Below, in pieces: positions 3,086-59,100 of a DNA stretch of 64,000 nucleotides (the first letter of the stretch is position 1; each line of letters starts with the position of its first letter). Below the pieces are notes generated by a model. That model did not search any database, had not been told where the DNA came from, and saw nothing but the letters and a program-made list of their open reading frames with translations. Origin of the DNA: an uncultured Gammaproteobacteria bacterium (GTDB taxonomy: Bacteria; Cyanobacteriota; Vampirovibrionia; LMEP-6097); NCBI GenBank assembly GCA_964517685.1, contig CAZFCF010000010.1, positions 6,624 through 70,623 on the forward strand, in the 5' to 3' direction. The translations under genes and the position numbers were made by a program.

Positions 3086-3162
3086 GTCATTGCGAGCGAA
3101 GCGAAGCAATCCCCTTGCGTAGTAGAATGGATTGCTTCGTCGTTACACTCCTCGCAATGACG
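3086..3162. repeat. GC-rich palindromic element, full hairpin copy (GTCATTGCGAG..GCAATCC / GGATTGC..CTCGCAATGAC)
   Basis: GTCATTGCGAGCGAAGCGAAGCAATCC, a loop, then GGATTGCTTCGTCG..CTCGCAATGACG. Lies between the convergent rplT and murT-like genes. Confidence 0.85.
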
Positions 3163-11545: not shown

Positions 11546-12940
11546 ATGTATCGTTTTATAGAGAAATCCCTCAAAAACTGGCAGGAAAGTAAAAAGCCAA
11601 ATCCAATACTTTTAAGAGGCGCACGCCAAGTTGGCAAAACCTACATTATAGAAAAATTTGCCAAAGAAAATTTTTCTAACTACATTTATATAAATTTTGA
11701 ATTTGAAGCTCATCTCAAAAATATTTTTATAGATTTAGATCCTGAAAAAATTAGCACAAGAATATTTCAAGAATTAAAACAAAAACTTATACCAGGACAG
11801 ACTTTAGTTTTCCTTGATGAAATTCAAGAATGTCCAGAAGCAATTTTGGCAATGAGATATTTTTACGAGAGAATGCCTGGCTTGCATATCATCGGAGCAG
11901 GCTCACTTCTAGAATTTCTTTTAAACTCAGGCAAAATTTCAATCCCTGTAGGAAGAATTGATTTTTTATTTCTGGGACCAATGTCTTTTTGTGAATTCTT
12001 ACTTGCTAACTACAGTAACGACCCAACAATACTCAATCAAATCAAATCCTTATCACTATTAGCTAAGCATGATGAATTTTTTCACAATAATCTACTTAAA
12101 CAAGTCAAAAAATATTTTTACGTAGGCGGTATGCCAGCAGTAGTAGATAAATATTTAAATACTCAGTCAGGATTAGTCGATCAAGCAGAATTAATTAACC
12201 AAGAATTAGCCAAAATCATCTATTCATATAGAAAAGATTTTGGTAAATATGCAAACCTTGCTAAACAAAAATACCTGGAAGCAGTTTTCATAAAAGCTTC
12301 CAAACAAATAGCAGAGAAATTTGTTTACAGTCAAATTGATAAAGAACTTAGTTCTAAAGAATTAAAAGTTGCATATGAATTATTACTAGAAGCTTTGGTA
12401 ATGCACAAAGTGTCAAGAACTAGCGCTGCTGGCTTACCTTTAGAAGCATATGCTTCAGCTAAACATTTCAAAAATATCTATTTAGATATCGGTATAGCAG
12501 CAAAGATTTTAGGAACTGATCAAAATATTCTTGATACAGCACTTAAAGAAGATGATTTTCATTCTATTGCACAAGGTCCATTAACAGAACAATTTGTGGG
12601 ACAAGAACTTTTAGTAAGGCAGCCATTTTATGAAGAAGCCAAAATCTATTATTGGGCAAGAGATGTAATAAATAGTTCTGCAGAAGTAGACTACGTGATA
12701 AACCATAATTTACAAATCTATCCTATAGAAGTTAAAGCAGGAGTCAGTGGCAAACTTAAAAGCTTACGTATGTTTTTAGAAGAATACAAAGCACCTTTTG
12801 GCATAAGAATTTCAACACGAAGACTTGCATATAGTGATGGGATTCTAGACGTACCACTTTATGCGATTCAAGAAATACCAAGATTTATTGACGAACTATT
12901 TCTTAATATTCACGATTTTTCACCCAAAAACCGTGAATAA
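11546..12940 (+). CDS. AAA-family ATPase with DUF4143-type C-terminal domain
   Basis: LLRGARQVGKT Walker A and VFLDEIQ Walker B. Same architecture as the paralog at 53074-54474. Confidence 0.8.
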   Translation: MYRFIEKSLKNWQESKKPNPILLRGARQVGKTYIIEKFAKENFSNYIYINFEFEAHLKNIFIDLDPEKISTRIFQELKQKLIPGQTLVFLDEIQECPEAILAMRYFYERMPGLHIIGAGSLLEFLLNSGKISIPVGRIDFLFLGPMSFCEFLLANYSNDPTILNQIKSLSLLAKHDEFFHNNLLKQVKKYFYVGGMPAVVDKYLNTQSGLVDQAELINQELAKIIYSYRKDFGKYANLAKQKYLEAVFIKASKQIAEKFVYSQIDKELSSKELKVAYELLLEALVMHKVSRTSAAGLPLEAYASAKHFKNIYLDIGIAAKILGTDQNILDTALKEDDFHSIAQGPLTEQFVGQELLVRQPFYEEAKIYYWARDVINSSAEVDYVINHNLQIYPIEVKAGVSGKLKSLRMFLEEYKAPFGIRISTRRLAYSDGILDVPLYAIQEIPRFIDELFLNIHDFSPKNRE

Positions 12941-12992
12941 ACCCCTAAAGTTACCCTTTATTCACGTTTTTTCAGCAAAAAACCGTGAATAA
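12907..12992 (+). promoter_or_regulatory. two tandem homologous hairpins / inverted repeats (TATTCACG-T5-6...A5-6-CGTGAATA)
   Basis: Hairpin 1 at 12907-12939 lies inside the last codons of the ATPase gene. Hairpin 2 at 12958-12992 ends 23 nt before the Fic start. No T-run follows either. Confidence 0.45.
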
Positions 12993-13014
12993 TATTTATA
13001 ATAGTAATTAAAGG

Positions 13015-13902
13015 ATGAGTATCAATCAGAGTCGAAAAAATTATATTCAGGAATTAAAATCCAAATTTGATAGCTTACGCCCAGGCAAAGAATCTTTACT
13101 AAGCATGATTGATGAAGCAGAAATTGCTGAAGCAGTTTATAACTCGAATGCCATAGAAAACTCAACTCTAACTCTTAAAGAGACAGAAAAAATTCTTCTT
13201 GAAATGGAAATTGAAAGAGATCTTTCTCTTAGAGAGGTTTATGAAGCAAAAAACCTTGCACGTGTAGTTAATTACATTCGCAATAAATCTCAAGACAAAG
13301 AATTAGATCAAGAAACTATTTTACTTTTACATCAGATGCTAATTGGTGGCATTGATGACAAAATTTCAGGGAGATTTCGCAAGAAGGGTGAGTATGTGCG
13401 TGTTGGCAGCTATATCGCTCCAGCACCAGAACTCATTGAAACAATGATGCAAGAAGCCATAGAAGAGTATAGAAATAGTTTTGATAAATATTTCATTGAT
13501 AAAATTGCTAAATTCCATCTTAGTTTTGAGCATATACATCCTTTCTGTGATGGGAATGGCAGAATGGGTAGAGCAATCATTAATTATCAATTTCAGCGTA
13601 TTGGTTTTCCGGGAATAATAATTCGCGACAAAGAGAAAGCTGATTACTATAGTTCCTTCCATGACTTTGATCAAAAAGGCAAAACCGAAAGACTAGAAAA
13701 AATCATTGCTCTTGCACTTATTGAATCATTTCATAAACGGCTTGCTTATTTAGAGAGCATGAAAATTATCACACTGAAAGATTATGCAAAGAAACATAAA
13801 AGTTCTGTCTCCGCAATTAGTAATGCTGCTAAAAGGCAGACAATACCTGCATTTCGTGAGAGAGGAGCTTGGAAGATAGGATATAGTGAAAAAACAAGAT
13901 GA
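13015..13902 (+). CDS. Fic family protein (class II, with intramolecular inhibitory motif)
   Basis: HPFCDGNGRMGR matches the Fic motif HxFx(D/E)GNGRxxR. N-terminal SNAIEN matches the (S/T)xxxE(G/N) inhibitory helix. Confidence 0.9.
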   Translation: MSINQSRKNYIQELKSKFDSLRPGKESLLSMIDEAEIAEAVYNSNAIENSTLTLKETEKILLEMEIERDLSLREVYEAKNLARVVNYIRNKSQDKELDQETILLLHQMLIGGIDDKISGRFRKKGEYVRVGSYIAPAPELIETMMQEAIEEYRNSFDKYFIDKIAKFHLSFEHIHPFCDGNGRMGRAIINYQFQRIGFPGIIIRDKEKADYYSSFHDFDQKGKTERLEKIIALALIESFHKRLAYLESMKIITLKDYAKKHKSSVSAISNAAKRQTIPAFRERGAWKIGYSEKTR

Positions 13903-18703: not shown

Positions 18704-19441
18704 ATGACAGAAAACCAACAAAAGATATTCGTAATTGACGATGATCCCGCAATTTTAGAACTTGTAAGTTCAAACATAGAAATGCAAGGGTATACCGTAG
18801 AATCATGCGACAATGCCATCGACGGACTTGCTCGTATTATCCAGAACCCACCAAATCTAATTATTCTTGACTTGATGATGCCTAATTTAGACGGTTTCAC
18901 AGCTTGCCAAAGACTTAGACAGAACGACAAAACTAAGGATATTCCTGTTTTGATGTTAACTGCTTTAAGCAGAACTGAAGACAAAGTAACTGGCTTTGAT
19001 TCAGGAGCTGATGACTATTTAACTAAGCCATTCGAGCTTTCAGAGTTATACGTTAGAGTTAGAGCGCTTCTTAGAAGATCTGGTTCAATCACTCTTTCTC
19101 AATCAATTCCAGAAATTCTTCACTCTGGCGAAATCACTTTAATGCCTGAATCTAGAGAAATCAAGATTGACAACCGCATTATAAGACTTACGCCAATTGA
19201 GTTTGAAGTTCTTCATTGCTTAATGCAAAACCACGGTCAAACAGTTTCTCCAGGAACTTTACTTAAAGAAGTTTGGGGTTACTCACCTGAAGATGATGTA
19301 GACACAATCAGAGTTCACATCAGACATTTAAGATCTCGTATCGAAATCGGTGAGAAAAAATACATCAAAACCGTTTACGGTGGTGGTTACCAATTAATCC
19401 CTGATGGTTTCGTTAAACACGGAACTCCAGTGGAAGCGTAG
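18704..19441 (+). CDS. OmpR-family response regulator (RpaB-like)
   Basis: Receiver domain (DDD...DLMMP...LTA...KPF) plus a winged-helix output (LTPIEFEVL...VWGY...VHIRHLRSRI). Confidence 0.9.
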   Translation: MTENQQKIFVIDDDPAILELVSSNIEMQGYTVESCDNAIDGLARIIQNPPNLIILDLMMPNLDGFTACQRLRQNDKTKDIPVLMLTALSRTEDKVTGFDSGADDYLTKPFELSELYVRVRALLRRSGSITLSQSIPEILHSGEITLMPESREIKIDNRIIRLTPIEFEVLHCLMQNHGQTVSPGTLLKEVWGYSPEDDVDTIRVHIRHLRSRIEIGEKKYIKTVYGGGYQLIPDGFVKHGTPVEA

Positions 19442-19483
19442 TTCAAAAAAACTCTCATACCAAAACCAAATCAACAAATTAAA

Positions 19484-19510
19484 ACAGCTCCTTATGGGAG
19501 CTGTTTTTTT
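19484..19510 (+). terminator. rho-independent terminator
   Basis: ACAGCTCC-TTAT-GGGAGCTGT stem-loop followed by T7. Confidence 0.8.
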
Positions 19511-19516
19511 ATAGAT

Positions 19517-19560
19517 GTCATTGTGAGGAGGAGCAAAGCGACGACGTCACAATCCAGTCC
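19517..19560. repeat. diverged half copy of the palindromic element
   Basis: GTCATTGTGAGGAGGAGCAAAGCGACGACGTCACAATCCAGTCC. Confidence 0.6.
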
Positions 19561-19575
19561 TGCACAGGGTTTCAA

Positions 19576-20541
19576 TCAAAACTTTATACCGTATGCTTTA
19601 TTAAACTCTTTAAGCTTAGTTGTAATTAAATTTTCTGCAGCATCACCAAGGTCTTCTTCTAAACCAATATCAAAATCAGAATGATGTTTAAATTTTTCGC
19701 CTTTAGGACCAGTTATTTCAAGAACACAGGCAATGTCATAAGGCTTGTCTAGAGTATGTCCAGTATATTGCACTGTAAAATAATGTACCCTACCATTATG
19801 TTTTAAGTAAAGTCCTACATTATCAATAAGAGTATCATCCGCTGGCGATGTTTTTCTTAGAAGTAAATCAGCATTAACAATAGATCCTTGTTCAAATATT
19901 GTTTTGACGTCTTGCAATGAAAGATTTCTTGGGTTACTCTCCGGTGGTATCCGATTAACGGCATTAAAATCTTCCAATTGCCCAAACAAATGTCTGTCGT
20001 CAGAATTAGAAACTACTGCTTTAAAATCTTCACCACCAATAGAAGCTGAGATCTTATAATTTGCATGCTCAGTACCAATTGCTCCTGGACCAATAATTGT
20101 AATCTTTTCATTACCAGCCATAGCTTCTATAAGAATATCTTCTCGACGAATAAATGCAGGATGACAACTTTTCCTAAAAGCCGCTCCTAGAGTAGCTTTC
20201 AACCTTGTAGCTTGATCTTCTTTTATCCAAGCTTGACCTTCTTGTGTTTCTGCAAAAGCTTCAGTAAGTTCTTTAGTAAGGATGTGCTTAGGAGTTAATT
20301 TTTCAATCAGTGCTGCACAAGCATTACGTAAGTATGTTAGGATAGACATACTTTTTAGACTAACAGGCTCTTGCCCTAAAGCTTGTTTTTTACCAGATCC
20401 TACTGCCGCTAAAAGTTGAGGATACAATCTTCTCTCACTGTCATTCGGATCACCTGTAAAAATACTCCTATTTATTGCTTGATAAAAATTCTGACCATCT
20501 ATTATAGAAGGAGAAGTTTGCTCTATTGATCCAACTGACAT
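19576..20541 (-). CDS. unknown-function paralog 1
   Basis: Homologous to 20625-21611 and 21792-22622 (blocks ETQEGQAW, FKISAS, LFGQLEDF, GSIVNADL, KLKEFN). Start set at ATG 20541 from the conserved promoter geometry. The ORF track starts at 20565. Confidence 0.6.
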   Translation of the reverse strand: MSVGSIEQTSPSIIDGQNFYQAINRSIFTGDPNDSERRLYPQLLAAVGSGKKQALGQEPVSLKSMSILTYLRNACAALIEKLTPKHILTKELTEAFAETQEGQAWIKEDQATRLKATLGAAFRKSCHPAFIRREDILIEAMAGNEKITIIGPGAIGTEHANYKISASIGGEDFKAVVSNSDDRHLFGQLEDFNAVNRIPPESNPRNLSLQDVKTIFEQGSIVNADLLLRKTSPADDTLIDNVGLYLKHNGRVHYFTVQYTGHTLDKPYDIACVLEITGPKGEKFKHHSDFDIGLEEDLGDAAENLITTKLKEFNKAYGIKF

Positions 20542-20548
20542 AGAGCTT

Positions 20549-20578
20549 ATCTTACAACCCAACATTATCTTATGTCAA
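20549..20578 (-). promoter_or_regulatory. sigma70-like promoter, leaderless geometry (paralog 1)
   Basis: Minus strand reads TTGACA(20578-20573)-N18-TAAGAT(20554-20549)-N7-ATG(20541). Confidence 0.45.
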
Positions 20579-20583
20579 CAAAA

Positions 20584-20606
20584 GAAAACCCCGGGCAATG
20601 CCCAGT
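20584..20606 (-). terminator. degenerate hairpin element after paralog 2
   Basis: AAAACCCCGGGCAATGCC shared with 22642-22659. On the - strand it reads CTGGGCATTGCCCGGGGTTTT (stem plus T-run). Confidence 0.4.
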
Positions 20607-20624
20607 GAAATGAAGTTTGGTCTA

Positions 20625-21611
20625 TTACCACTCTATCAAATAATCGTCATTAAATTCTTTGAGCTTAGTCAACATGTAGTCTTCTGCTATATCGCAGAGC
20701 TTTCTTGCTGGAGTATCATTATCATCATTCTTAAACTCTCTATTCCTGTCATCTGTTATTTCATAAATATGACCAGTATAAGGATCATTTTCTGGATGTT
20801 TATACCTCAAATTAAAATAATGTAATTGATCATTATATTCTAAACAAAGTTCTATATGGTCTATAGGATTGCCGTATTCATCAGGATTTCCTTTAATTAA
20901 ATCAGCGTTAACGATAGTTCCCCACTGAAATATTGTTTGGAGTCCTTTTAATGAGGGGGAGGCTAATTCCTGAGTTTCTAATGTTTCTATTGCATCATCT
21001 TGCTTAAAAAAATTTTCTAATTGCTCAAACAAAGGCTGATCTTTTCCTGCATTAGAAATTACTGCTTTGACATCTGTACCATTAACCAAACCATGAACTG
21101 AAGCTGAGATTTTAAAATTTCTATTTTGACCTGTACCTGCCATCGGACGAGTAATCGTAATAATTTTATTGCCAACATCAACATACCTTATAAGATCACC
21201 ATACCTATTAAAAATGCTAGGGCTTGGACCATTCTTGAAAGCTGCTTTCAGAGCACCTTTCAATTTATTAGCTTGATTTTGTTTTATCCAAGTTTGACCT
21301 TCTTGTGTCTGAGCAAGAGCAGTTTTTAGTTCTGTAGGTAGTGGCTTAGTCGGATTAAACTGAAGCGTAAGCTTTTCAAGTAAAGAGTCAAATCCATATT
21401 TTAATCGCTGTAGGAAACTAATCTTTTCAGTACTAACAGTCTGTCCTAAAAATTCTTTTTCACCAATTCCAGCAAGAGCCATAATTGCAGCTGACTCTCT
21501 TGCATCAGTTTTCTTTCCATCTTTGGCATCCTCTGTTAAATCTTGGTATGCTTGATGAGCTTTATAAAAAGGATTTAAAGATGGAAATTCTTTTGCTTTT
21601 GTTATTAACAT
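20625..21611 (-). CDS. unknown-function paralog 2
   Basis: Paralog of 19576-20541 and 21792-22622 (QTQEGQTW, FKISAS, LFEQLENF, GTIVNADL, KLKEFN). Confidence 0.6.
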   Translation of the reverse strand: MLITKAKEFPSLNPFYKAHQAYQDLTEDAKDGKKTDARESAAIMALAGIGEKEFLGQTVSTEKISFLQRLKYGFDSLLEKLTLQFNPTKPLPTELKTALAQTQEGQTWIKQNQANKLKGALKAAFKNGPSPSIFNRYGDLIRYVDVGNKIITITRPMAGTGQNRNFKISASVHGLVNGTDVKAVISNAGKDQPLFEQLENFFKQDDAIETLETQELASPSLKGLQTIFQWGTIVNADLIKGNPDEYGNPIDHIELCLEYNDQLHYFNLRYKHPENDPYTGHIYEITDDRNREFKNDDNDTPARKLCDIAEDYMLTKLKEFNDDYLIEW

Positions 21612-21618
21612 TCAATAA

Positions 21619-21648
21619 ATTCTACAACTCCGCATTATCTTATGTCAA
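21619..21648 (-). promoter_or_regulatory. sigma70-like promoter, leaderless geometry (paralog 2)
   Basis: Minus strand reads TTGACA(21648-21643)-N18-TAGAAT(21624-21619)-N7-ATG(21611). Confidence 0.45.
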
Positions 21649-21689
21649 CAAAAACCCAATTAAAGCGGTTTCGCTGAATTTTTATTTTG

Positions 21690-21719
21690 TTGACTTAAAA
21701 TCCTGCCAAATTGTAAGAT
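21690..21719 (+). promoter_or_regulatory. sigma70-like promoter, leaderless geometry (paralog 3)
   Basis: TTGACT(21690-21695)-N18-TAAGAT(21714-21719)-N7-ATG(21727). Confidence 0.45.
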
Positions 21720-21791
21720 GTGAAGCATGGTAAACATAGGACCTTTAAATTTAGAACATACTTATGCATTCCATGATGATCATTAAGTCCA

Positions 21792-22622
21792 ATGAGTGAA
21801 AAGAGAACTACAAATTCTCTTTTTAGTGATAGAGATTTGGCAGTTGGCTTAGCGCTAGGAGGAATAGGCAAAGCAGAATTTTTAAGAGGACCTGTAAATG
21901 AAGAGCATGTCAATGCACTAAGTACGCTAAGAGACCTTGCTGAAAATATACTTGGTAGAATCCAGCCTAATAGTCCATTACCGAAAGAATTAAGAAGAGC
22001 TTTTCGTGAAACTCAAGAAGGAAGATCATGGACAATACCTGAGCGATATAAAATATTAGGAGCTGCTCTAGAAGAGGCTTTCGCCAATGGTACGCAACCA
22101 GAAATTATTCGTCAAGAAGGCAATATTATTAGAGTTATAAACAGTGATGATATAGAAATTACCATTGCAGGTAGTGGAGGAAAGGAGTTTCAAGTTTCAG
22201 CAACTGTGGGTGGTCATGATATTGGATTAAATATTGGGAAAGATAAACTATTGTTTAATCAATTAAATAATTTTGTAAAAAATAGTTTTCAAGAAGAAGA
22301 AGTAAAATTTGAGAATTCAGTAAACGTCAATAACCTTATCGAGAAAGGAACTATTGTTTGTTCAGAGTTTTTAAAGCTTGATATGGACAAAGAAACTGTG
22401 AATGGGCTACAGAAAGATATATTTAAAGAACAGACGAAAGTTTGGATAAGATATCAGGACACTATACATCCTGTTATAGTGCGATATTGTTACTATCCAT
22501 ATGAGATGGACTCCTGTAAGCGTATTATGGAAATAAACGGTTCAAAAGTGAATACATCAGACAGCTCTTTAATAAACTTTCTAAGCCAGCTCGGTAAATT
22601 TGACCATAAATATAAGTTTTAA
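21792..22622 (+). CDS. unknown-function paralog 3 (N-terminally disrupted or re-initiated copy)
   Basis: Blocks ETQEGRSW, FQVSAT, LFNQLNNF, GTIVCSEF. The promoter-proximal ATG at 21727 opens only a 19-codon ORF in another frame. Confidence 0.55.
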   Translation: MSEKRTTNSLFSDRDLAVGLALGGIGKAEFLRGPVNEEHVNALSTLRDLAENILGRIQPNSPLPKELRRAFRETQEGRSWTIPERYKILGAALEEAFANGTQPEIIRQEGNIIRVINSDDIEITIAGSGGKEFQVSATVGGHDIGLNIGKDKLLFNQLNNFVKNSFQEEEVKFENSVNVNNLIEKGTIVCSEFLKLDMDKETVNGLQKDIFKEQTKVWIRYQDTIHPVIVRYCYYPYEMDSCKRIMEINGSKVNTSDSSLINFLSQLGKFDHKYKF

Positions 22623-22635
22623 ATAGTTACAAGAT

Positions 22636-22666
22636 CCAAAAAAAACCCCGGGCAATGCCGGGGTTA
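22636..22666. terminator. bidirectional hairpin terminator
   Basis: A8 run, then AACCCCGG-GCAATG-CCGGGGTT, between convergent paralog 3 and the DUF378 gene. Confidence 0.6.
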
Positions 22667-22718
22667 AATGAATTTTGTATTTTGATTCTTCGTTGAATCG
22701 TTTTTTATTTTTTGATTA

Positions 22719-22919
22719 CTAGCCGTTAGTACCAAACAGTTTACCATCCAAAATAAATAGGATTGCTGATAAACCAATTAGTCCATAGACTACAGTTGCG
22801 ATTATTCCTAATCCACCAAATAGAACTTGTACTAAGTCTACGTGTAGGATTCCGTAAAGTCCCCAGTTTAATCCACCAATCACTAGCAGAATTGAAGACA
22901 ACATTTTAACTAAATGCAT
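22719..22919 (-). CDS. DUF378 family small membrane protein
   Basis: GGLNWGLYG motif. Two TM helices in 66 aa. Confidence 0.8.
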   Translation of the reverse strand: MHLVKMLSSILLVIGGLNWGLYGILHVDLVQVLFGGLGIIATVVYGLIGLSAILFILDGKLFGTNG

Positions 22920-32069: not shown

Positions 32070-34265
32070 TTAACCAACAATACCAAGTATTGAATCAAAA
32101 ATTTCATTCCAAATGCTTATAACACGCGCATTCGCGCTAAAGCTATTTTGAAATTTAATCAAGTTTGCAGTTTCTTCTTCAATTGAAACTCCACTAATAC
32201 TTTGTCTACGATTGTCTAAAGACTCATAAAGAGCAATTGAACTTTCTTGTTTTGAATTTGCTACTGAACCTCTAGTACCAAAATCACCTACGATATCAGC
32301 AATCTTATTATTAAAGTTTGTACTTGAATCATCTTCAGTACCTTGAATTATAGAAACTCCAAAATGTCCTGAGTTATTAGTTAGATCGCTATCATTAAAA
32401 CTGCTATTCATTTTGAATCTAACAAAAGCTGCACCAGCAGGAACTGTTCCTGTATAAGTCACTCTATCAGTAGGAGCACCAGCAGACGCAGGGAAATCTA
32501 CAGCAGAACCAATAACAGTTCCAGCAGCATTCACAAATTCAATTTGCATCAAACTGCCACTACCAAAACCATTAGTACCTGCATTCACCGCACTACCATT
32601 ATCATCGGCAAGACCATCTGCGTGGATAGTAATAGTTTGACCAGGCACTATTGCAACTTTACTTGAAACATTAGCACTACTATCTGAGTCGATATATACT
32701 TTCTCAGACTTAGCAGAGTTACTAACAATATTATTAGTTCCGAAAAAAAGATCCGCAACTTCAGCTGCAATACTGCCATCACTAGGAGAGCCAGTTTGAC
32801 CTTGAGTCAATAAAGAATTATTAGAAATTACATTGGTATTCACTGCAAAACTACCTGCAGTTGTTCCAGTAAACAATGCAGCTCCAGCATTACCGGCAGC
32901 AGTTGTTCCAAGAGTAAGAATTTTATTTACTGAATTCTTTATACTCATTGCAAAGTCAGAAAGACTTTGTCTCATTTCAGGAATAGCCTTATTAGATGCT
33001 TCAAAAAGCCCACCAATAGAGCCACTGAAGGAATCAATATATCCAGATGCTGTTTGTAAACTATCATTAGTTCTAAGAATCAATTTACCAGGATTCGAAC
33101 CAACTGCATTAAATCCTGGTTCTGTATCAAAGGTATAATCCAAACCATGACTATCAAGTAAAGTTACTGTTTGTCCAGCAGTACCACTTACAGTACCTGA
33201 ACTTAAACCTAAAACAGTTAAAGCATTACTTGAAGCACCAATAGTAATTGCAGCGCTGGTTGTATTTTCAGCATTGTCTACCAATGCAGTTTGTAAAACA
33301 AGCTTACCTGAACTATCTATTGAAGCAACACTACCTCTGCCACCAGAAGCACTAAAAGTTTTATTTATTTTATCAACAATTTCTCTTGGCGTTGATCCAA
33401 CCTCAAAATTTACAGTAAAAGGACCCGTACTAGTTCCTGCGCCATTATTAACAGTAAGCACTAAAGTGTTTGCTGAACTGGTTATACCAGAAATTGCTGA
33501 ATCATAGTTAGGGAAGAAATTTGTACTTGAAACTTTAGCTTCTGAAGCATGTATGCTCATAGATAACTTATTAAATTGTCCACCACCGTCTCTTACTATA
33601 TTGACATCGAGCATAGTACTAATTTCATCTAGTAATAAATCACGTTGATCTTTTAATTGAGTAGTTTCGGCTTCTCGTGCATCAAGACTTAAAATCTTTT
33701 TATGTACACCCTCTAATAATTTCAATTTTTCATTTAATTCTCTTACTGAGGTATTAATCGTTCCAGAAGGAGCTGCATCTAAATTAGATTTAAGCAAATT
33801 AATAGATTGATCAATTTGATTAAAAGCACTTGTAAGTGTGTTTGCAGAATTAATAAATACTGTTCTTGCTGCCTCTAGCTCTGGGTTTGCTGCCCAATCA
33901 CTTGCAGCTTGGAAAAATTCATTTGCCTTAGCAGTTAATCCTGAATCACTTGGCTCACCAAGAATATCATTCATTGCCACCATAAGATCCGCAAGCTCTT
34001 TATCTCTACCAGCATTTGCACCTTGTTGTCTAACCTGTTGATCAAGAAATGAGTTTCTAATTCTATCTACGGTTTCAACAACAACACCCGTAAGCAAACG
34101 CATCTTGCTTTGACCAGTTTGTGATGCTCCACCTTCAACAAAACCAACCTGCTTTCTTGAATAACCTTTAGTATTGGCATTGGCAATGTTATTACTCGTA
34201 ACATCTAGCCCCACTTGTGAAGCTAACATTCCTGAAACACTTATATCTAATCCGCTGAATGACAT
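32070..34265 (-). CDS. flgK: flagellar hook-associated protein 1
   Basis: N-terminal SGMLASQ..L.VTSNNIANANTKGYSRKQ and C-terminal EETANLIKFQNSFSANARV. Confidence 0.9.
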   Translation of the reverse strand: MSFSGLDISVSGMLASQVGLDVTSNNIANANTKGYSRKQVGFVEGGASQTGQSKMRLLTGVVVETVDRIRNSFLDQQVRQQGANAGRDKELADLMVAMNDILGEPSDSGLTAKANEFFQAASDWAANPELEAARTVFINSANTLTSAFNQIDQSINLLKSNLDAAPSGTINTSVRELNEKLKLLEGVHKKILSLDAREAETTQLKDQRDLLLDEISTMLDVNIVRDGGGQFNKLSMSIHASEAKVSSTNFFPNYDSAISGITSSANTLVLTVNNGAGTSTGPFTVNFEVGSTPREIVDKINKTFSASGGRGSVASIDSSGKLVLQTALVDNAENTTSAAITIGASSNALTVLGLSSGTVSGTAGQTVTLLDSHGLDYTFDTEPGFNAVGSNPGKLILRTNDSLQTASGYIDSFSGSIGGLFEASNKAIPEMRQSLSDFAMSIKNSVNKILTLGTTAAGNAGAALFTGTTAGSFAVNTNVISNNSLLTQGQTGSPSDGSIAAEVADLFFGTNNIVSNSAKSEKVYIDSDSSANVSSKVAIVPGQTITIHADGLADDNGSAVNAGTNGFGSGSLMQIEFVNAAGTVIGSAVDFPASAGAPTDRVTYTGTVPAGAAFVRFKMNSSFNDSDLTNNSGHFGVSIIQGTEDDSSTNFNNKIADIVGDFGTRGSVANSKQESSIALYESLDNRRQSISGVSIEEETANLIKFQNSFSANARVISIWNEIFDSILGIVG

Positions 34266-34276
34266 TGTTTAATTAC

Positions 34277-35524
34277 CTAACCTAAAAAATCACCTAAAGA
34301 CTTGGAGAAAAAATTCGACGTTGTTTTAATTGCAGTCTGTAAAGCTGCTTGAGCATTGGCAAGCTGCATATTTGCATCAACCATATCAATATCCTGAATA
34401 GTTGAAAGGTCACTTTGCAATTTAATATCCAAATCATCGCCTGCAGAATTCAAACGTTCCGCTTGAGCAATCAAAAGACCAACCTGACTTTGTACTGCAT
34501 TAATTTGCTTAGAGTTAGATTTTATATTGTTTAATAAGCCTCTTATGGCACTATCATCATTAGAAGACAAAGCTGATACTAACGAAGCGATAGTATTCAT
34601 CAACCCCATATCCTTACCGAAATTGTCTCTAGTACTTACGCCAAGCTCTTTAACTAAAGCAGTTGTAGAAGTATTTTTAAGACTGATTCTGGCATCACTG
34701 TTTGCAGTGTTTCCAGTTATATTTGCTGTGTCTAATTTCAAATATCCCGCAGGACTTTCTTGAGCTAGAGAACCAAGACCACCAGCACCTGTAAAAGCTG
34801 TATTAATTTTAGAAATAATTGTTGATAAATCATCTCCAGAAGCAATCGCTGCAGTAAAGTTCACTATAGTTCCATTGCCATCATCAGTTTCAAAAACTAA
34901 ATTACCTGCCGCTGTAGCAATAGGATTAATTACATTATTACGACAAAATGCTCCCTGAGCAGCACTCACCAAGGCATCTTTAACTGATACGCTTGAAGTC
35001 AAACCACCACTAGCTCTTTCTTTACTATTGTCCTGATTGTGCTTATAAATTACTTGATCAAAAGTAGAGCCTTCTTGAAGTCTCAATGTTTGCAAATCAC
35101 TTTGCTCACCTGAAAAAATAAATTTGCTGCCATTCTTTGAGTTTGATAGTTGAATTATAGTATCTGCAAGAGAACTAAGTTCATCTTTAAGAATTAACCT
35201 TTCATCAGTAGATACTGAACCAGTTCCACCCTTAATTGCAATTTCATTGATCTTGTCAATAATGTCATTCATAGATCTTAAAGAAATTTCTTGTGCTTCA
35301 AGATCAGAAGTAGCAGTATTTCTATCTCTTATGCCTTGATCATTTTTACTAATTCTTCCTTGAGTATCGATACTACCTATAATTGAAACAGGATCATCAT
35401 ATGCTGCAGTAAATTTTTTACCAAGGTTAATTTGCTTAGATAGTTTATAAATATCACTTTGGTTGTCAGTAACATTTCTACTGAGCAGGCTATAAATTAA
35501 ACTTGTACTTAAACGATCAACCAT
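34277..35524 (-). CDS. flgL: flagellin-fold hook-associated protein 3 (FlgL-like), copy B
   Basis: FlgL-type N-terminus and a GSKFIFSGEQSD block. C-terminal flagellin helix (DMVDANMQLANAQAALQ). Confidence 0.7.
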   Translation of the reverse strand: MVDRLSTSLIYSLLSRNVTDNQSDIYKLSKQINLGKKFTAAYDDPVSIIGSIDTQGRISKNDQGIRDRNTATSDLEAQEISLRSMNDIIDKINEIAIKGGTGSVSTDERLILKDELSSLADTIIQLSNSKNGSKFIFSGEQSDLQTLRLQEGSTFDQVIYKHNQDNSKERASGGLTSSVSVKDALVSAAQGAFCRNNVINPIATAAGNLVFETDDGNGTIVNFTAAIASGDDLSTIISKINTAFTGAGGLGSLAQESPAGYLKLDTANITGNTANSDARISLKNTSTTALVKELGVSTRDNFGKDMGLMNTIASLVSALSSNDDSAIRGLLNNIKSNSKQINAVQSQVGLLIAQAERLNSAGDDLDIKLQSDLSTIQDIDMVDANMQLANAQAALQTAIKTTSNFFSKSLGDFLG

Positions 35525-35534
35525 TACCTATCCT

Positions 35535-36785
35535 TTATATTGAAATAAAATCAAAAATATTCATTTTTAATATGGCAGCACTAGCTTGTAAACTAGAGTT
35601 TAAGACTGTTTGCGCCACGCTAACTTTTTGTATTGCATCGACAACTGGAATTTTTGCAATATTAGCTTGATCTGTTTTTAATGCATCAACATTATCCAAA
35701 TTTTTCTTTTCACTATCATTGAATTTCCTTACCAAGTCACCAAGCTTGGCTTGAGCATTAATCAACCTATCTAAATTTTCTTGGATATCAATAATAGTAC
35801 TTCTAATAGCTGCACTGTCATTGGTGTTGTAAGCTGTATCGAGCCTAGCTAAGGCTTCTCTAATATCTCCACTGACACCTTTCTCTGTAGTTGCCCTTAA
35901 GCCAAGGCTTGATAAACTATTTGGCAAAGTGTTTCCAGGATTAACAATGATTGCTGCACTGGCATTATCGATGCTATTTGTTATAGTGCTAGTCGTAAAC
36001 GCTAGCTTACCAGCATTATTACTAACGATAGTTCCAGCGCCACCTGCAGTAGTAAATGCTGTATTAATTTTATTGATGATATCAGTAATAGTATCGCCAC
36101 TAGCAAAAGCAATATCACCAAGATTGATATCGTTCTTACCATCATTGACAACCAAATTTAATTCGGCATTGGCAGCAAGAGGTGATGTAAAAGCTGTACC
36201 TGTATAACTTGCTGCTTGAGAAGCTTTAGAAAAAATATTTTGCAAACTAATACTTGATTGAATACCTTCTACAGATCTTTCGCCAAGATCTGTTTGTGCT
36301 TCTTTGTAATCAGCATTGTTGAACAAACCATTTGGTACATAATCAACTACAGTGATATCACTTTGTTTACCACCAAAAATAAATTTGTTACCCAGCTTAG
36401 TATTTGCAAGCTGATATAAATTTTCTCCAAGATTTCTTAACTGAACACCTAAAATTTCAAGATCGTCTCTAGCTGTAGTATCTGAACCACCTTGAATAGC
36501 ATCAGTTTTAATTTGATCCAAAATATCTTTCATGTTGCCTAGTGCAGATTCTGCAAGCTCTAATTCAGTAGCAGCTTTACTATGGTTCTCTGAAAGTTTT
36601 TTTGCATGTTCAATAAGACCTGTAACTTGAATTAAATCTTTTGAACCACCCATTTCATCGTAATTATTTAATAATCGCTGGCCTGTATTCAATCTCATCG
36701 TATGCCCAGCAAACTGACTTTGATTAAGAACTATATGGTCCCTACCGTCGTTGAATCTTTGAAGTGAGCTGAGTCTTCCTAACAT
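35535..36785 (-). CDS. flgL: flagellin-fold hook-associated protein 3 (FlgL-like), copy A
   Basis: GNKFIFGGKQSD block and a C-terminal flagellin helix (VVDAIQKVSVAQTVLNSSLQ). Paralog of 34277-35524. Confidence 0.7.
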   Translation of the reverse strand: MLGRLSSLQRFNDGRDHIVLNQSQFAGHTMRLNTGQRLLNNYDEMGGSKDLIQVTGLIEHAKKLSENHSKAATELELAESALGNMKDILDQIKTDAIQGGSDTTARDDLEILGVQLRNLGENLYQLANTKLGNKFIFGGKQSDITVVDYVPNGLFNNADYKEAQTDLGERSVEGIQSSISLQNIFSKASQAASYTGTAFTSPLAANAELNLVVNDGKNDINLGDIAFASGDTITDIINKINTAFTTAGGAGTIVSNNAGKLAFTTSTITNSIDNASAAIIVNPGNTLPNSLSSLGLRATTEKGVSGDIREALARLDTAYNTNDSAAIRSTIIDIQENLDRLINAQAKLGDLVRKFNDSEKKNLDNVDALKTDQANIAKIPVVDAIQKVSVAQTVLNSSLQASAAILKMNIFDFISI

Positions 36786-47342: not shown

Positions 47343-47849
47343 CTATTTAGTAGATTCTTTAGCTTCTTTTTTTGGCTTAGGAGCTTTCTCCAATTGAGTC
47401 AAGAAAGTATCTGTCATATCAGCACTATCGGTAATAGGATAAATTATGAAACCCTTATCTAAAATGATTTCATAACCTTTCTCTTTAGCCACTTGATCTA
47501 AAGTATTTTGGAAATTACGATTGATCGTCGTATTGTACAAATCTTTCTCTTCTTGCACTTCTACAACTTGCTCATCAATAGTTTCTTGAATAGCGTTCTT
47601 TTTCTTTTCAACTTCTTCAGGCTTTGCCGTTTTTTCTAATTCAGTTAACTCAGCTTCAGCAGTAGTTAGAATACGCTTGAAGCTTTGTTCTTTTCCATCA
47701 AGAATAGTATTAGCTTCCTGAACTAAAGAATATTGTTTATAGACCTTCATTATGTCTATTGAAGCTACATTGCCTGCACTTGCAGATAATGTGTTCAATG
47801 AAAAAATAGCAACTAAAGAAATTTTAGTTAAGTTTTTTAATGACTTCAT
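47343..47849 (-). CDS. skp: OmpH/Skp-like periplasmic chaperone, copy 2
   Basis: Signal peptide and a Lys/Glu-rich coiled coil of ~165 aa, immediately upstream of lpxD. Confidence 0.65.
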   Translation of the reverse strand: MKSLKNLTKISLVAIFSLNTLSASAGNVASIDIMKVYKQYSLVQEANTILDGKEQSFKRILTTAEAELTELEKTAKPEEVEKKKNAIQETIDEQVVEVQEEKDLYNTTINRNFQNTLDQVAKEKGYEIILDKGFIIYPITDSADMTDTFLTQLEKAPKPKKEAKESTK

Positions 47850-48327
47850 CAGTTATATCTGTTCCTCCGTATAAAACTGCATCTTTGATAAGAACGTAAT
47901 CATACTTACCTTGCTGAGCAATAACTTTAATGGTATCCATTAGCTTAGTTTCAAGAGCACCGGTCTTTTGAGCAGCATCTTCTTGAATCTTTTTAGCTTC
48001 AGGCTCTAATTCAATTTTCATTTTCTCAGCCAACATTTGCAATTCTGTTTCTGATTTTTTCGCTTCTTGAGCTTTTTTCATCTCTTCACGTTTAACTTGA
48101 ATTTTTTTATTTAAATCAGCTTCTGATTTTTGGATCTCTTGAAGAACCTTTTGAGCAGCTGGGCTTTCTTGTAGAACTCTAGGTGAGTTAATATACGCAA
48201 TCTTTATACCAGATGCATTAACTGGCTTCACTTCTGCTTTTTTATCAGCGGCAAAGACAGGAACCGATAATAATGTAATAGCAGCCAGACTTAAAAATGT
48301 ATGAACTTTAAATTTTAATTTTGACAT
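47824..48327 (-). CDS. skp: OmpH/Skp-like periplasmic chaperone, copy 1
   Basis: Same architecture as the adjacent copy. Confidence 0.65.
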   Translation of the reverse strand: MSKLKFKVHTFLSLAAITLLSVPVFAADKKAEVKPVNASGIKIAYINSPRVLQESPAAQKVLQEIQKSEADLNKKIQVKREEMKKAQEAKKSETELQMLAEKMKIELEPEAKKIQEDAAQKTGALETKLMDTIKVIAQQGKYDYVLIKDAVLYGGTDITDEVIKKLN

Positions 48328-48367: not shown

Positions 48368-48889
48368 ATGAAGATCAAGCTAGGAAAAATATTTTTTCTC
48401 TTTTTAATTTCGTCTCTACTACTAAATTCTTGTTCAAAGAAAATCCAGAGCACAGAGAATAATTCTAGAAATCAAAAGAATGCAAAAGTTACTGTTTATT
48501 TCACAAAGCCTAGTAAAGAACTTGGTGTTGTTTTAATACCTGTTGTAAGAAAAATTTCCAAAGGTTCATCTGCTTATCAAACAGCAATTAAAGAGCTGTT
48601 CTTAGGCCCAACTCTTGAAGAAAGAGAGAAACTCGAACTCAACAGCGAAATCCCTGAAGGTTCTCGTCTCATCAAAATTATCGAAGAAAATGATTCTGTA
48701 AAAATCGATATCAGCAGCCAGTTCATGTATGGTGGTGGTTCTGAATCGATGCAAGTTAGATTTAGACAATTTAGAGAGACTGCCCTTACTCTTGCTAAAG
48801 GCAGACCTGTCTACTTATATATAGATGGAACTCTTGCTACAAAGATTGGTGGCGAAGGTCTTGAAATACCACAACCACTCAAAAAATAA
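48368..48889 (+). CDS. GerMN-domain lipoprotein
   Basis: Lipobox LLNSC. VTVYF...IKELFLGPT...IPEGSRL...ISSQF pattern of GerMN domains. Confidence 0.6.
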   Translation: MKIKLGKIFFLFLISSLLLNSCSKKIQSTENNSRNQKNAKVTVYFTKPSKELGVVLIPVVRKISKGSSAYQTAIKELFLGPTLEEREKLELNSEIPEGSRLIKIIEENDSVKIDISSQFMYGGGSESMQVRFRQFRETALTLAKGRPVYLYIDGTLATKIGGEGLEIPQPLKK

Positions 48890-56147: not shown

Positions 56148-59100
56148 ATGCTACCATGTAATCTTGCTCAAATGTCTGTCATTAGTCCTAAATATTTATT
56201 GCAATCAGGCGCTAGTTTTAGAGAGATAAGGGCCAATATTGATCCTTCAACTGGACTTTTATTTCCTGTTGGTGTGAAAACTCCTCTTTATGACTTTGCT
56301 CATTTAAAGTCTTTACCTAGATCAACAAGAAAACAAAAATTTGCTGCAATAAAAGCAGGGAAAAAAACTCGACAACAATTCGAGCAATTAAAACAAGAAT
56401 CTGAAGTTAGGTTGGCTCCTGTTCAAAGGCAAATCAAATTATCCAAAGCAGAATTAAAAAATAAGCAAGATGAGCTAGCTGAAATTATTAATAGCTATCA
56501 AATTAGTGCAGAAGTTGATGATAGTGAATATGAAAATAGAATTGCACATACTATAAATGAAGCAAAGAAAATTTTTCAAGAACAACAGTCCCATGAATCT
56601 CAAGTAAGAGATTTGAAATCACAATATAAAGGAAAATTTCATGGCTTGGAACAAGAAAAACAAGCTAGAGATTTAACCTACCCTGCACCAGAACAAAAAC
56701 CTTTTGCACTCAGGGTTTTAGATGAAGAGTTTAATTTTACTAATGACGAAAAATCACTACTTGAGAGTAGAGTGGAAAACTTTACTTCAATCCCAATAGC
56801 CACTGAAGTTAAAGCAAAATTCTCCAGACTGAAAGATTATATATACGCAAAAAAAAATCTCAAGCCTTTCGAAGAAAATACTTTATTACTTGAAATAAAT
56901 AGTGATAATGCAGTTGTTTATCTACGCAATAAACTTGCTCAAATAAGTTCTCGTTATGATAGACAAACAAAATTAGAACAATGGATTCAAATCTATTTAA
57001 AATCCCCAACCTTCAATTCAGAGCAAGCTAAGGTTTTAAATTTCTTACTTAAAGAATATAAAGGTATTCCCAGTAGTCACTCGGAAAGCCTTTTTGCTAA
57101 GGCAAAAAATTATCCAGAATTAATTGATGTTTTAGTACATTTATTTAAGCAAACTCCAGACTACAGCCAAACTATGATTCTTGTTAAAGCTCTTAGAAGC
57201 AAAAATCACGAGCTTACAGAAAAATTGCTAGCTATATACAAAGATGAGTCGAAGATAGAAGATTTTCAAAAACATAAATTCTTGAATCTGCAACGCTATC
57301 CATATGATGAATATTTATGGACATATGCATTAGAAACGGACTCAAAAGGTTTTGAAATTTTAGCAAAACGCTATGGCAAAGATTTTATTGAAAGAATTTT
57401 TGACTTTAATAAAACTGAATATAATCAAAAAGAACTCGTTCAAAGTCAACCAGAATTACTTAGTTCTAATACTTATTTTTTCCTAACAGCAGTTAAGAAT
57501 GGTAATCTTCCTTTAATCAAACTTATTTGGGCAGGAATTCCTGAGCAGTCTAAAAAGTTATACTGCAAAAAAGATATTTATAAAGCTATTAGATCACAAG
57601 AAAAAAATTTCATTTCTTTTGTTTTAGATATTGCTGTAAAAAATGGCAATTTAGAAATGGTCCAAGGTATTTTAGATTTAATGCCAAATGAAACACTCAA
57701 ACATAAATTACTAGAATCTTCTTTATATCCATTTTCACCATATTCAGACCATCCCTTTTCATCACCTCTAAAATCCCGCCCTTTCCAAATTATTTATACA
57801 GCAATAGAAACAGGACAAGCAGCAATAGTATCAAATCTACTAAAGAATATTAGTCCAGTAGAGAAACAAACAATTTATACAAATTCTTGTCGTGAATTTT
57901 TACGACTAGTTGCTCATCTTTTTCGTAAAGAAAACATCTCAAATACAGAATTTGAAGCTGGCAAAAACTTGCTTAATGATTTTTTACAGAACAACAGTAA
58001 AAGCAAAATAAATTTCTTAGCCCAAGTTTTAGATTATTTAGTCCGCATGGATCCTCTTCATGATATTGATTATAGGAATCTCTACAAATGGTTAGAAGAA
58101 ACATCTCAAGAACAAAAAAATATAACTTGTTCTGAGGCTACAACAAAAATTAAAATGATAGATTCTTATCCAAATTTTTCAGAATACTTTGCTGATGAAA
58201 TAAATGTATCTAATCTAATACAGTCTATGACTGGGGAGCAGGACACACACATTATCAATCATGCAAGAGTAAGAATACCGTTAGCTCTATATGATTTTGT
58301 CATTAAAACCAATCCTACAATTATTGATAAAGTTTTAGATCACTATAAAAAAATTGATCAATCTTTAGTAAGTCATATTGTTAACAATATAGTCTCTAAA
58401 ATTCAATTTACTGCAAATGATTATGGGCAGGAGTCAAAAGAAAGAATAGAGAACAATATCAAATACATCTTTGATAAATACAAAGACTCAATTCCTTTAC
58501 AAAAAATTATTAGTAACAATAAATTTGCTTTCTTATGCAAGCTTACAAATTCTTTTTCGCCAAATTTGGTAAATTATTTTATTAATCAAATTGAAGATAT
58601 TGAAACAAAAAACAGCTTAGTAAAAATTTTCCCAACTTACATAAAACTTTCTCAAGCATTGAGTTTGAGTTTAATGATGGAAGATTATCCCAATTATTAT
58701 CGGGCACAAGATTTTGCTGCTACATATGCATTTGATTTAGCTAATCTTTTTGATGGTGATTATAAAGCAGCTTGCAATTTTATTTTCAATAAATTTCAAC
58801 TGTGGCAGGACAAATCCTTACATAATACTTTACTTAATATCAGAGGACCTAAAGAACTTAATGGCTGGGAAAAAAATAAATGGAAAGATTTAATAGAGAA
58901 ACAAATAGCAAGTCCGCAAGGAAAAAATGAACCGCAGATTAGTAATATGCTTGAACAGGCAATTAAAATTCAGGAAGCTTTATCCAAAATGCCTGGAAGA
59001 AATTTAAGAACTTTAAATCCTTATGAAGTTCAAGCATTAGTCTATAAAACTATGTTTGCAAATGCTGAAGCAGACAAAGATTTATTCAACATTTGTATAG

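Follow-up and report, generated by a model that had tools for sequence, protein, structure and literature searches.

Hairpin-promoter cassettes of a lineage-restricted, hypervariable gene family with predicted leaderless expression in a Melainabacteria-type bacterium

The window analysed here, a 64-kb stretch of contig CAZFCF010000010.1 (positions 6,624 to 70,623 of the forward strand), carries three related protein-coding genes, copies 1, 2 and 3 (c1, c2 and c3), between the genes for an OmpR-family response regulator (RR) and a small DUF378 membrane protein (Table 1). An earlier annotation of this DNA, made from the letters alone and hereafter called the sequence-only reading, had described the three open reading frames (ORFs) as clear paralogs. 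Their coordinates agree with the ORF list, and the relationship is confirmed by BLASTP, which aligned c1 with c2 at 39% identity (E 7e-51), c2 with c3 at 32% (E 1e-30) and c1 with c3 at 29% (E 1e-23). The blocks ETQEG.xW, F(K/Q)(I/V)SA(S/T), LF.QL..F and G(S/T)IV that it had listed as shared are visible in the alignment of all three, as is a C-terminal KLKEFN common to c1 and c2. No additional paralog turned up in a local, unfiltered search of the window. At third codon positions the family genes have a lower GC content than their neighbors (GC3 of 17-23% as against 28-33%), and c1, which adjoins the RR gene, occupies the slot held by the lone copy in related genomes.

The three-copy layout, together with an interruption of c3 described below, was observed in assemblies from six samples. 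Positions 21680-21800 are identical across all six of these independent assemblies, and the region 19400-22700 is identical throughout wherever a contig spans it, which is the case in two of the six. An assembly artefact was considered as the source of the layout and ruled out on account of this agreement between independent assemblies.

Table 1. Coordinates of the family genes, their promoter and hairpin elements, and associated features of the window
Feature	Position	Strand	Description	Basis
c1 coding sequence (CDS)	19576..20541	-	321 aa	ORF list; start 20541 also in independent gene calls
c2 CDS	20625..21611	-	328 aa	ORF list, alignment
c3 CDS	21792..22622	+	276 aa; inverted relative to c1 and c2; ~25 N-terminal residues missing	ORF list
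c1 promoter module	20539..20581	-	TTG-TTGACA, -35 at 20578-20573; TAAGATAATG box; TTG-TAAGAT, -10 at 20554-20549; N7; ATG 20541-20539
c2 promoter module	21609..21651	-	TTGACA 21648-21643; N18; TAGAAT 21624-21619; N7; ATG 21611-21609
c3 promoter module	21687..21729	+	TTGACT 21690-21695; N18; TAAGAT 21714-21719; N7; ATG 21727-21729
Promoter motif sites	20539-20578 (-), 21609-21648 (-), 21690-21729 (+)			pattern search
19-codon ORF	21727..21786	+	MVNIGPLNLEHTYAFHDDH, then stop; starts at promoter-linked ATG	sequence; identical in six independent assemblies
Hairpin between c2 and c1	20585..20605	-	left arm degenerate, then GGGGTTTTCTTTTG on the - strand; terminator-like for c2	terminator scan, pattern search
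Hairpin between DUF378 gene and c3	22644..22665	-	AACCCCGGCATTGCCCGGGGTT, then T-run; 8 pairs, 6 GC, T8; DUF378 gene terminator; 22 nt past c3 stop	terminator scan
Hairpin between convergent c1 and RR genes	19481..19507	.	AAAACAGCTCCCATAAGGAGCTGTTTT	terminator scan
DUF378 small membrane protein gene	22719..22919	-	conserved flank	Pfam E 6.7e-15
OmpR-family (RpaA/RpaB-like) RR gene	18704..19441	+	conserved flank, convergent with c1	best NCBIfam models RpaB, PhoB
Further leaderless-type starts	48327 (-), 62304 (-), 4884 (-), 17599 (-), 53074 (+), 48899 (+)			-10-like box 6-8 nt before first ATG
Dispersed palindromic repeat copies	19517-19575; near 3148, 14177, 14896, 26368, 28672, 28711, 28774, 31985, 44808, 48959, 48972

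Upstream of every copy lies a strongly conserved block, in which the sequence-only reading had recognized a near-consensus promoter with its -10 box 7 nt from an ATG, and a motif search bears this out. The window has exactly three occurrences of the pattern TTGAC-N19-TARRAT-N7-ATG, one for each copy, as against 0.00 expected from 100 dinucleotide shuffles, and the c2 and c1 promoters are the two top sigma-70-like sites of the 17-25 kb interval (11/12 and 10/12 matches). The c3 promoter points away from that of c2, so that the two form a divergent pair. The 19 nt TTGTTGACATAAGATAATG, reported earlier as identical between the upstream regions of c1 and c2, were indeed located at 20563-20581 and 21633-21651. 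The c1 module is kept in three related genomes with a single family gene each (L006, L008 and L009), and the upstream regions of all six known family genes have TTGAC, TAA.AT..TG, TTGTA..AT and the ATG in common without exception. Spacer and discriminator (7 nt) differ freely from gene to gene with no 3-nt periodicity, and conservation collapses straight after the ATG. Furthermore, an in-frame TGA follows the box ATG of c2 before the real start is reached, and the upstream stretch is therefore not coding. RNAalifold shows the hairpin discussed below as the sole conserved RNA structure of the upstream regions, and Rfam and tRNA scans of the window gave no match. By its pattern of conservation the block is unlike coding sequence or structured RNA, and we read it as a promoter held constant by purifying selection in front of a gene that diverges rapidly. 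An in-frame upstream ATG is present in c1 at 20565, 24 nt before the start, and its counterpart is used by one gene caller in P0004, a family member from outside the window. A longer c1 ORF from this ATG, like the matching P0004 call, was rejected, as c2 has an in-frame stop there and c3 has no ATG there; by this comparison the downstream ATG (20541 in c1) is the conserved start.

A -10 (Pribnow) box 6-8 nt from the start codon is accepted as a computational mark by which leaderless genes of bacteria are recognized (PMC6028130, the GeneMarkS-2 paper). Such a box, with the form TA(A/G)(G/A)AT-N7-ATG, precedes c1, c2, the N-terminal remnant of c3 and the family genes of L006, L008 and L009. None of GGAG, GAGG and AGGA occurs within 15 nt upstream of the c1 and c2 ATG, and all six starts are ATG; the DUF378 gene, by contrast, has a clear AAGGAGGT Shine-Dalgarno (SD) motif. 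The sequence-only reading had taken the missing SD as a sign of leaderless mRNAs, and while none is found before c1 and c2, its absence is not special, SD motifs being rare across the window. As a purine is preferred at +1 of transcripts, the N7 spacing leads one to expect that transcripts begin either with the A of the ATG or with the nucleotide preceding it, and we infer with moderate confidence that c1 and c2 are translated from leaderless mRNAs, with the transcription start site (TSS) at or within 1 nt of that A. Leaderless genes of this kind include lambda cI transcribed from PRM and many genes of Mycobacterium, Streptomyces and Deinococcus, and correspond to the ‘group C’ signature of GeneMarkS-2. 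The family genes resemble them in the position of the -10 box, at N7 in all six, and in the absence of an SD, as seen at c1 and c2; they differ in that the host is a Melainabacteria-type organism, in that the TSS is a predicted one, and in that the -10 is joined by a full consensus -35 and a further conserved box. Photosynthetic Cyanobacteria mostly belong to ‘group X’, with weak start signals (PMC6028130), and a literature search found no report on leaderless mRNAs in Melainabacteria.

Across the window, 7 of 60 long ORFs have a -10 box at a distance of 6-8 nt from their first ATG and match -10 and -35 together at no fewer than 8/12 positions; for all ATGs the figure is 3.4%, which makes an approximately threefold enrichment. 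As the geometry is enriched at other ORFs (Table 1), it is probably a genome-wide habit rather than a peculiarity of the cassettes, and the organism may use leaderless or SD-independent initiation widely. What appears peculiar to the cassettes is their near-consensus -35 and -10 elements and the strict conservation of both. Elsewhere in the window, the divergent genes 47824-48327 (-) and 48368-48889 (+) lie 40 nt apart, with TATAAT 6 nt before the minus-strand ATG and TAAAAT 8 nt before the plus-strand ATG. The plus-strand gene fell below the threshold of our scan for leaderless geometry; the pair may be back-to-back leaderless genes, in a layout like that of the divergent c2 and c3 promoters.

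The claim that an identical leaderless geometry precedes each copy stands for c1 and c2 and fails for the present CDS of c3, the promoter-linked ATG of this copy (21727-21729) opening a 19-codon ORF in another frame. The stop of this short ORF falls 5 nt before the c3 ATG at 21792, and the c3 CDS begins 65 nt downstream of the predicted TSS. As the ATG at 21727 is not the start of the 276-aa ORF, the present c3 is not a leaderless CDS; with its ATG 65 nt past the predicted TSS, it departs from the no-5'-UTR (untranslated region) property that defines such genes. The 19-residue peptide is colinear with the N-termini of other members, the best match being P0006 (MGTIGDLSLSSGQNF vs MVNIGPLNLEHTYAF). 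The 19-codon ORF is thus probably what remains of the original c3 N-terminus after a frameshift or a stop detached it, and the alignment of this remnant with the family N-termini supports the ATG at +1 as the ancestral start in all copies. The remaining 276-aa ORF would be either decaying or translated by re-initiation after the remnant.

The second repeated element of the locus is a GC-rich hairpin. Its presence in two copies, claimed by the sequence-only reading, was upheld, with the correction that the first 18-mer lies at 20585-20602 and not at 20584-20601. The 14-nt core CCCCGGGCAATGCC occurs twice in the window as against 0.03 expected occurrences, and the hairpins at 20585-20605 and 22644-22665 constitute a direct repeat that brackets c2 and c3. 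Two further parts of the earlier description had to be given up. It held that the hairpin had been inverted along with c3; both copies are in the same plus-strand orientation, and the hairpin was thus not inverted with the gene. It also described a cassette with the order promoter-CDS-terminator; in the single-copy loci of L006, L008 and L009 the same hairpin stands directly upstream of the promoter, and the module is therefore hairpin-promoter-CDS. As a T-run follows each hairpin on the minus strand, the hairpins serve as terminators of the minus-strand genes, DUF378 and c2. The hairpin at 20585..20605 appears to form the ancestral junction to the c1 promoter: the c1 junction GGGGTTTTCTTTTGTTGAC is identical to those of L008 and L006, and for this reason a deletion between the two hairpins would restore the single-copy layout exactly. 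A search of GTDB representatives with the hairpin 22-mer returned the L006 contig and two unrelated alphaproteobacterial chance matches only. The hairpin between the convergent c1 and RR genes (19481..19507) is probably a bidirectional terminator. Just downstream of c1, positions 19517-19575 are occupied by a copy of a dispersed short palindromic repeat, GTCATTGCGAGGA(A/G)...GACGAAGCAATCC, which has 12 seed matches in the window as against 0.43 expected; this copy is an insertion and is absent at L006, L008 and L009.

Each copy is, accordingly, an autonomous hairpin-promoter-CDS cassette. The ancestral unit consists of the GC-rich hairpin that terminates DUF378, a near-consensus sigma-70-type promoter, an ATG 7 nt past the -10 and a CDS of ~320 codons, set between the DUF378 gene and the convergent RpaA/B-like RR gene. 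Of the three units of the window, c1 holds the ancestral position, c2, which shares the duplicated hairpin, is a tandem copy, and c3 is inverted, its N-terminus having probably been cut later. With moderate confidence, we regard unequal recombination as likely to act on the repeated hairpin-promoter modules and thereby to alter copy number.

The family is exceedingly rare. An exhaustive HMMER search with a profile of the three paralogs against 1.84 billion cluster representatives, which stand for about 15 billion proteins clustered at 50% identity, recovered only six members, namely c1-c3 and the proteins P0004, P0005 and P0006. A search with the three-sequence alignment found no member in GTDB species representatives, IMG/VR or JGI metagenome contigs, and the promoter DNA pattern had no match in JGI metagenomes. 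Word-indexed protein searches with c1, c2 and the six-sequence profile returned the queries and P0006 only; these negatives weigh little, because the tool missed even the in-window paralogs, and the claim of rarity rests on the exhaustive HMMER search. The outside members are each a single copy, at the same chromosomal place, in one related genome each (L006, L008 and L009). The layout there is (DUF378)-hairpin-promoter-gene, convergent with the gene for the OmpR-type RR, which is followed by a diadenylate cyclase (DAC) gene. In L009 the upstream neighbor (3-461, +) is an unrelated 152-aa ORF without a Pfam match instead of DUF378; either module and family gene move together or variability extends to the upstream flank. 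In more distant Melainabacteria the DAC-RR pair is kept, an unrelated 137-aa gene follows the RR gene and no family member is present, and the family is therefore confined to a narrow clade.

The named members of the 90%-identity cluster of the RR are annotated as ‘Candidatus Melainabacteria bacterium’ and ‘Cyanobacteriota bacterium’, and on these sequence relationships the host appears to be a flagellated Melainabacteria-type organism, i.e. a non-photosynthetic member of Cyanobacteriota, with 36% GC. Flagellation follows from an FlgK gene and two tandem FlgL paralogs (415 and 416 aa) at 32070-36785 (-); besides these flagellar hook-associated proteins the window encodes MurT, a photolyase and a futalosine-pathway protein. 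The housekeeping proteins of the 3.9-kb L006/L011 contig (CAYQSL010000168.1, GCA_964420165.1) are 95-99% identical to those of the window, and its metagenome-assembled genome is labelled ‘uncultured Gammaproteobacteria’; given the labels in the RR cluster, this contig is probably mis-binned or mislabelled.

Comparison of the window with the related loci reveals a striking disparity between the family gene and its surroundings. Protein identity is 99% for the RR (window vs L006, L008 and L009), 97% for DUF378 (vs L006 and L008), and, between the window and related loci, 95% for homoserine dehydrogenase (HSDH), 94% for the nitroreductase and 91-96% for DAC. For the family proteins it is 30-46%, both between the window and the outside members and among the latter, and there is no close pair among the six. 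Among the nucleotide sequences, the RR gene is mostly >90% identical, the promoter block 73-92% and the CDS of the family gene mostly 35-65%, with sharp borders at its ATG and its stop codon. Copy number at the slot ranges from 1 to 3 across the known genomes. The earlier guess of a variable accessory gene is strengthened by this combination of a hypervariable CDS between near-identical flanks and changing copy number. In its fixed locus and the sharp drop of identity at gene borders the slot resembles replacement-type flexible genomic islands and hypervariable strain-specific loci, where conserved flanks enclose divergent versions of a gene, for instance at the O-antigen and other phage-receptor loci of marine bacteria. 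It differs from these in encoding a single soluble cytoplasmic-type protein rather than a cell-envelope biosynthesis cluster, in that all versions are homologous, and in that copy number also varies by tandem and inverted duplication.

We then turned to the proteins themselves, for which the sequence-only reading had recognized no domain, signal peptide or transmembrane segment. Pfam, Kyte-Doolittle profiles and inspection of the N-termini agree with this: none of the six has a credible Pfam domain, no segment is transmembrane-like (the maximum 19-residue Kyte-Doolittle mean is <=1.29), and no N-terminus in the family resembles a signal peptide. A match of 33 residues of c2 to the eukaryotic AP5B1_barrel model (23.0 bits against a gathering cut-off of 21.9, E 8e-5), weak in c3, was taken as spurious. 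The proteins are hydrophilic and acidic (isoelectric point, pI, 5.3-6.6). Their 22 invariant positions comprise M1 and residues of the types G, P, L, W, Y, A, I and F, with one T and one R, while D, E, H, C, S and K are never invariant among the six. This lack of invariant catalytic-type residues makes a binding or scaffold protein more likely than an enzyme.

A full-length AlphaFold2 model of c2, built on the six-sequence alignment, reached a predicted local distance difference test score (pLDDT) of 68.7, with residues 1-89 mostly <50 (mean about 43). The C-terminal 235 aa of c1, on the other hand, gave a confident model (pLDDT 85.2, predicted template modelling score, pTM, 0.80) with the order helix pair, five strands, helix, linker, helix, four or five strands and a long C-terminal helix. 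From these models we infer that the product is a soluble, acidic, non-enzymatic protein with a poorly predicted helical N-terminal third and a two-lobed alpha/beta domain. The structural search proposed along with the original observation thus yielded a confident C-terminal model and no significant structural match: Foldseek returned nothing at E <= 1e-3 for the full-length and C-terminal models against PDB or for the C-terminal model against the viral structures of BFVD, and no PDB sequence was matched significantly in a profile search. The non-significant top Foldseek matches were PUR-alpha repeats I-II, Whirly proteins, tandem double-stranded RNA-binding domains (dsRBDs) and PsbP/Eag-like proteins, with template modelling (TM) scores <= 0.3. 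The likeness to the PUR-alpha/Whirly fold consists in a predicted beta-sheet plus helix occurring twice, as in two PUR repeats, and in the rank of these matches; on the other side, the best superposition (8chv_B) has E 0.013, probability 0.60, TM 0.18/0.27 and root-mean-square deviation (rmsd) 18.7 A, the TM scores of these folds stay <= 0.29, the family proteins are acidic and sequence support is absent. The secondary-structure order of the C-terminal domain fits two repeats, and hhalign of its two halves gave E 0.17, with only the LxxFN helix ends aligned.

Based on these observations we propose, as a reading that we judge to have an about even chance of being correct, that the locus consists of self-contained expression cassettes of a lineage-restricted hypervariable gene, which is expressed from leaderless mRNAs and encodes a fast-diversifying binding protein with a presumptive role in biological conflict. 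The last element is put forward with low confidence: the protein may be a recognition or binding factor under diversifying selection, for instance conferring immunity to a competitor toxin or recognizing a phage component. The case for it is the extreme divergence between strains together with invariant residues that are only structural, and it is the weakest step of the argument. The neighbors, namely DUF378, homoserine dehydrogenase, AspRS, the OmpR-type RR, CdaA, nitroreductase and YidC, include no toxin, secretion, phage, recombinase or defence gene, and the functional assignment is hence drawn entirely from the evolutionary pattern. The more specific identity offered by the sequence-only reading, an effector, immunity or surface protein, likewise finds no adjacent gene of such systems to support it. 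PADLOC gave no significant match: those to PbeC (E 0.0011) and to a CARF_HEPN model (E 0.015) were confined to a single member of the six apiece, and none ran through the whole family. A phage origin receives no significant support either, the best PHROGs match having E 0.009 in one of six members and the best BFVD match E 2.6e-3 and TM 0.24, and IMG/VR holding no relative.

Several other points also weigh against this proposal. The TSS is placed by promoter geometry only, and the 18-nt promoter spacer is one longer than optimal. The picture of alleles and copy numbers is thin, coming from only four genome backgrounds, all metagenomic, and in it ancient paralogs with differential loss are not separable from fast divergence or allelic replacement. 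The interruption of c3 shows that copies can decay, and the low GC3 could equally reflect relaxed constraint.

These last two points lead to what we consider a possible, if somewhat improbable, alternative, namely that the genes form a young ORFan family of this lineage, weakly constrained, fast-evolving and with no specific role in conflict, in which copy number drifts by unequal recombination at the repeated modules and copies decay. The restriction to six members, the absence of the gene from more distant Melainabacteria that keep the DAC-RR synteny, the interrupted c3, the GC3 below that of neighboring genes and the lack of functional partners nearby would all be accommodated by such a scenario. 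It sits uneasily, however, with the long intact ORFs kept by all six genes in a 36% GC genome, with the conserved motifs and the confidently predicted shared fold, and with the strict conservation of promoter and ATG position, which indicates selection for expression.

Quite unlikely in our estimation is the effector or variable-surface option of the sequence-only reading, in the form of a secreted effector or antigen-like protein without a cleavable signal, exported by a flagellar type III or contact-dependent route and diversifying under pressure from prey, hosts or grazers. Some Melainabacteria, such as Vampirovibrio, are predatory; the genome encodes flagellar proteins (FlgK and the two FlgL copies), the gene is hypervariable, and the N-terminal ~90 residues are poorly predicted, with the first ~40 alignment columns among the least conserved. 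Yet the proteins lack a signal peptide, transmembrane segments, repeats and adhesin-like features, their genes have no secretion-system or chaperone gene beside them, and the flagellar genes are 10 kb off and unlinked. We regard as very unlikely the notion that the conserved upstream block is not the promoter of the genes but an operator or other DNA site, with leadered mRNAs transcribed from further upstream by read-through from DUF378 or c2. The geometric placement of the TSS, the extra conserved TAAGATAATG box beside the -35 hexamer and the many genes of this genome that lack an SD anyway leave room for it; against it, each unit is set off from its upstream neighbor by a strong hairpin and T-run, in six genes the hexamers, with 10-11 of 12 positions matched, keep a constant distance to the ATG, and the block shows neither conserved RNA structure nor an Rfam match. 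Finally, a C-terminal PUR/Whirly-like or tandem dsRBD-like nucleic-acid-binding module, which would make the protein a regulator or nucleic-acid chaperone, is highly improbable, as the predicted order (beta5-alpha, then alpha-beta4/5-alpha) and the best PDB matches noted above that favor it are offset by values of E >= 0.013, TM <= 0.29 and rmsd 14-19 A for all such matches, by the acidic pI, which argues against a classical nucleic-acid binder, by the non-significant internal repeat, and by a variability that would be unusual for a housekeeping nucleic-acid-binding protein.

Returning to our proposal of a diversifying binding protein, among the closest known analogs are the orphan immunity-gene arrays, with which the family shares tandem, diverged, non-enzymatic paralogs and variation between strains; TplEi and EagT6, which are immunity or chaperone proteins of type VI secretion systems (T6SS), are among its weak Foldseek matches (E 0.2-0.6, not significant). 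In contrast to the immunity arrays of polymorphic toxin systems, no toxin gene or delivery context, be it T6SS, contact-dependent inhibition (CDI), Rhs or Esx, adjoins the family genes, the proteins of ~320 aa are larger than typical immunity proteins, and every copy has its own promoter. Pfam, the PDB-sequence profile search and Foldseek against PDB gave no significant match to a known immunity family. Cassettes for phase or antigenic variation, with silent promoterless copies and a single expression site or with an invertible promoter near a recombinase gene, are a poor comparison, since here each copy has a promoter of its own and no recombinase or invertase lies within +/-10 kb.

Taken as a whole, what the sequence-only reading observed is largely correct, and its interpretation is correct in part. 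While the family is undescribed and all but restricted to a single clade, the phenomena that it displays are of known kinds, i.e. leaderless promoters and hypervariable fixed-locus genes with tandem and inverted duplication. Going further, one could imagine that Melainabacteria possess a novel class of hypervariable recognition proteins acting inside the cell, for example one-gene sensors or factors conferring immunity to phage or competitor molecules, carried on a ‘hairpin + leaderless promoter’ cassette whose conserved module would itself be the handle by which recombination exchanges, duplicates and removes alleles at a single chromosomal slot; we deem this extension unlikely. If our proposal holds, the locus would be a compact natural case of leaderless expression in the non-photosynthetic sister lineage of Cyanobacteria. 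It would also present a fold and a family without detectable relatives among about 15 billion predicted proteins or in the searched libraries of solved and viral structures, as well as a single-gene hypervariable slot with alleles differing by >50% in genomes otherwise about 95% identical, a pattern usually tied to phage or competitor pressure. If, instead, the genes are merely drifting ORFans, they would be a minor curiosity.

Elsewhere in the window, neither Pfam nor NCBIfam has a match for two ORFs, one of 1223 aa (56148-59819, +) and one of 516 aa (675-2225, -). An AAA_14/DUF4143 ATPase and a Fic-domain protein are encoded (11546-13902, +) between MqnA-like and GH3 genes that are adjacent in more distant Melainabacteria (L013-L018); the two intervening genes may be an inserted accessory pair.

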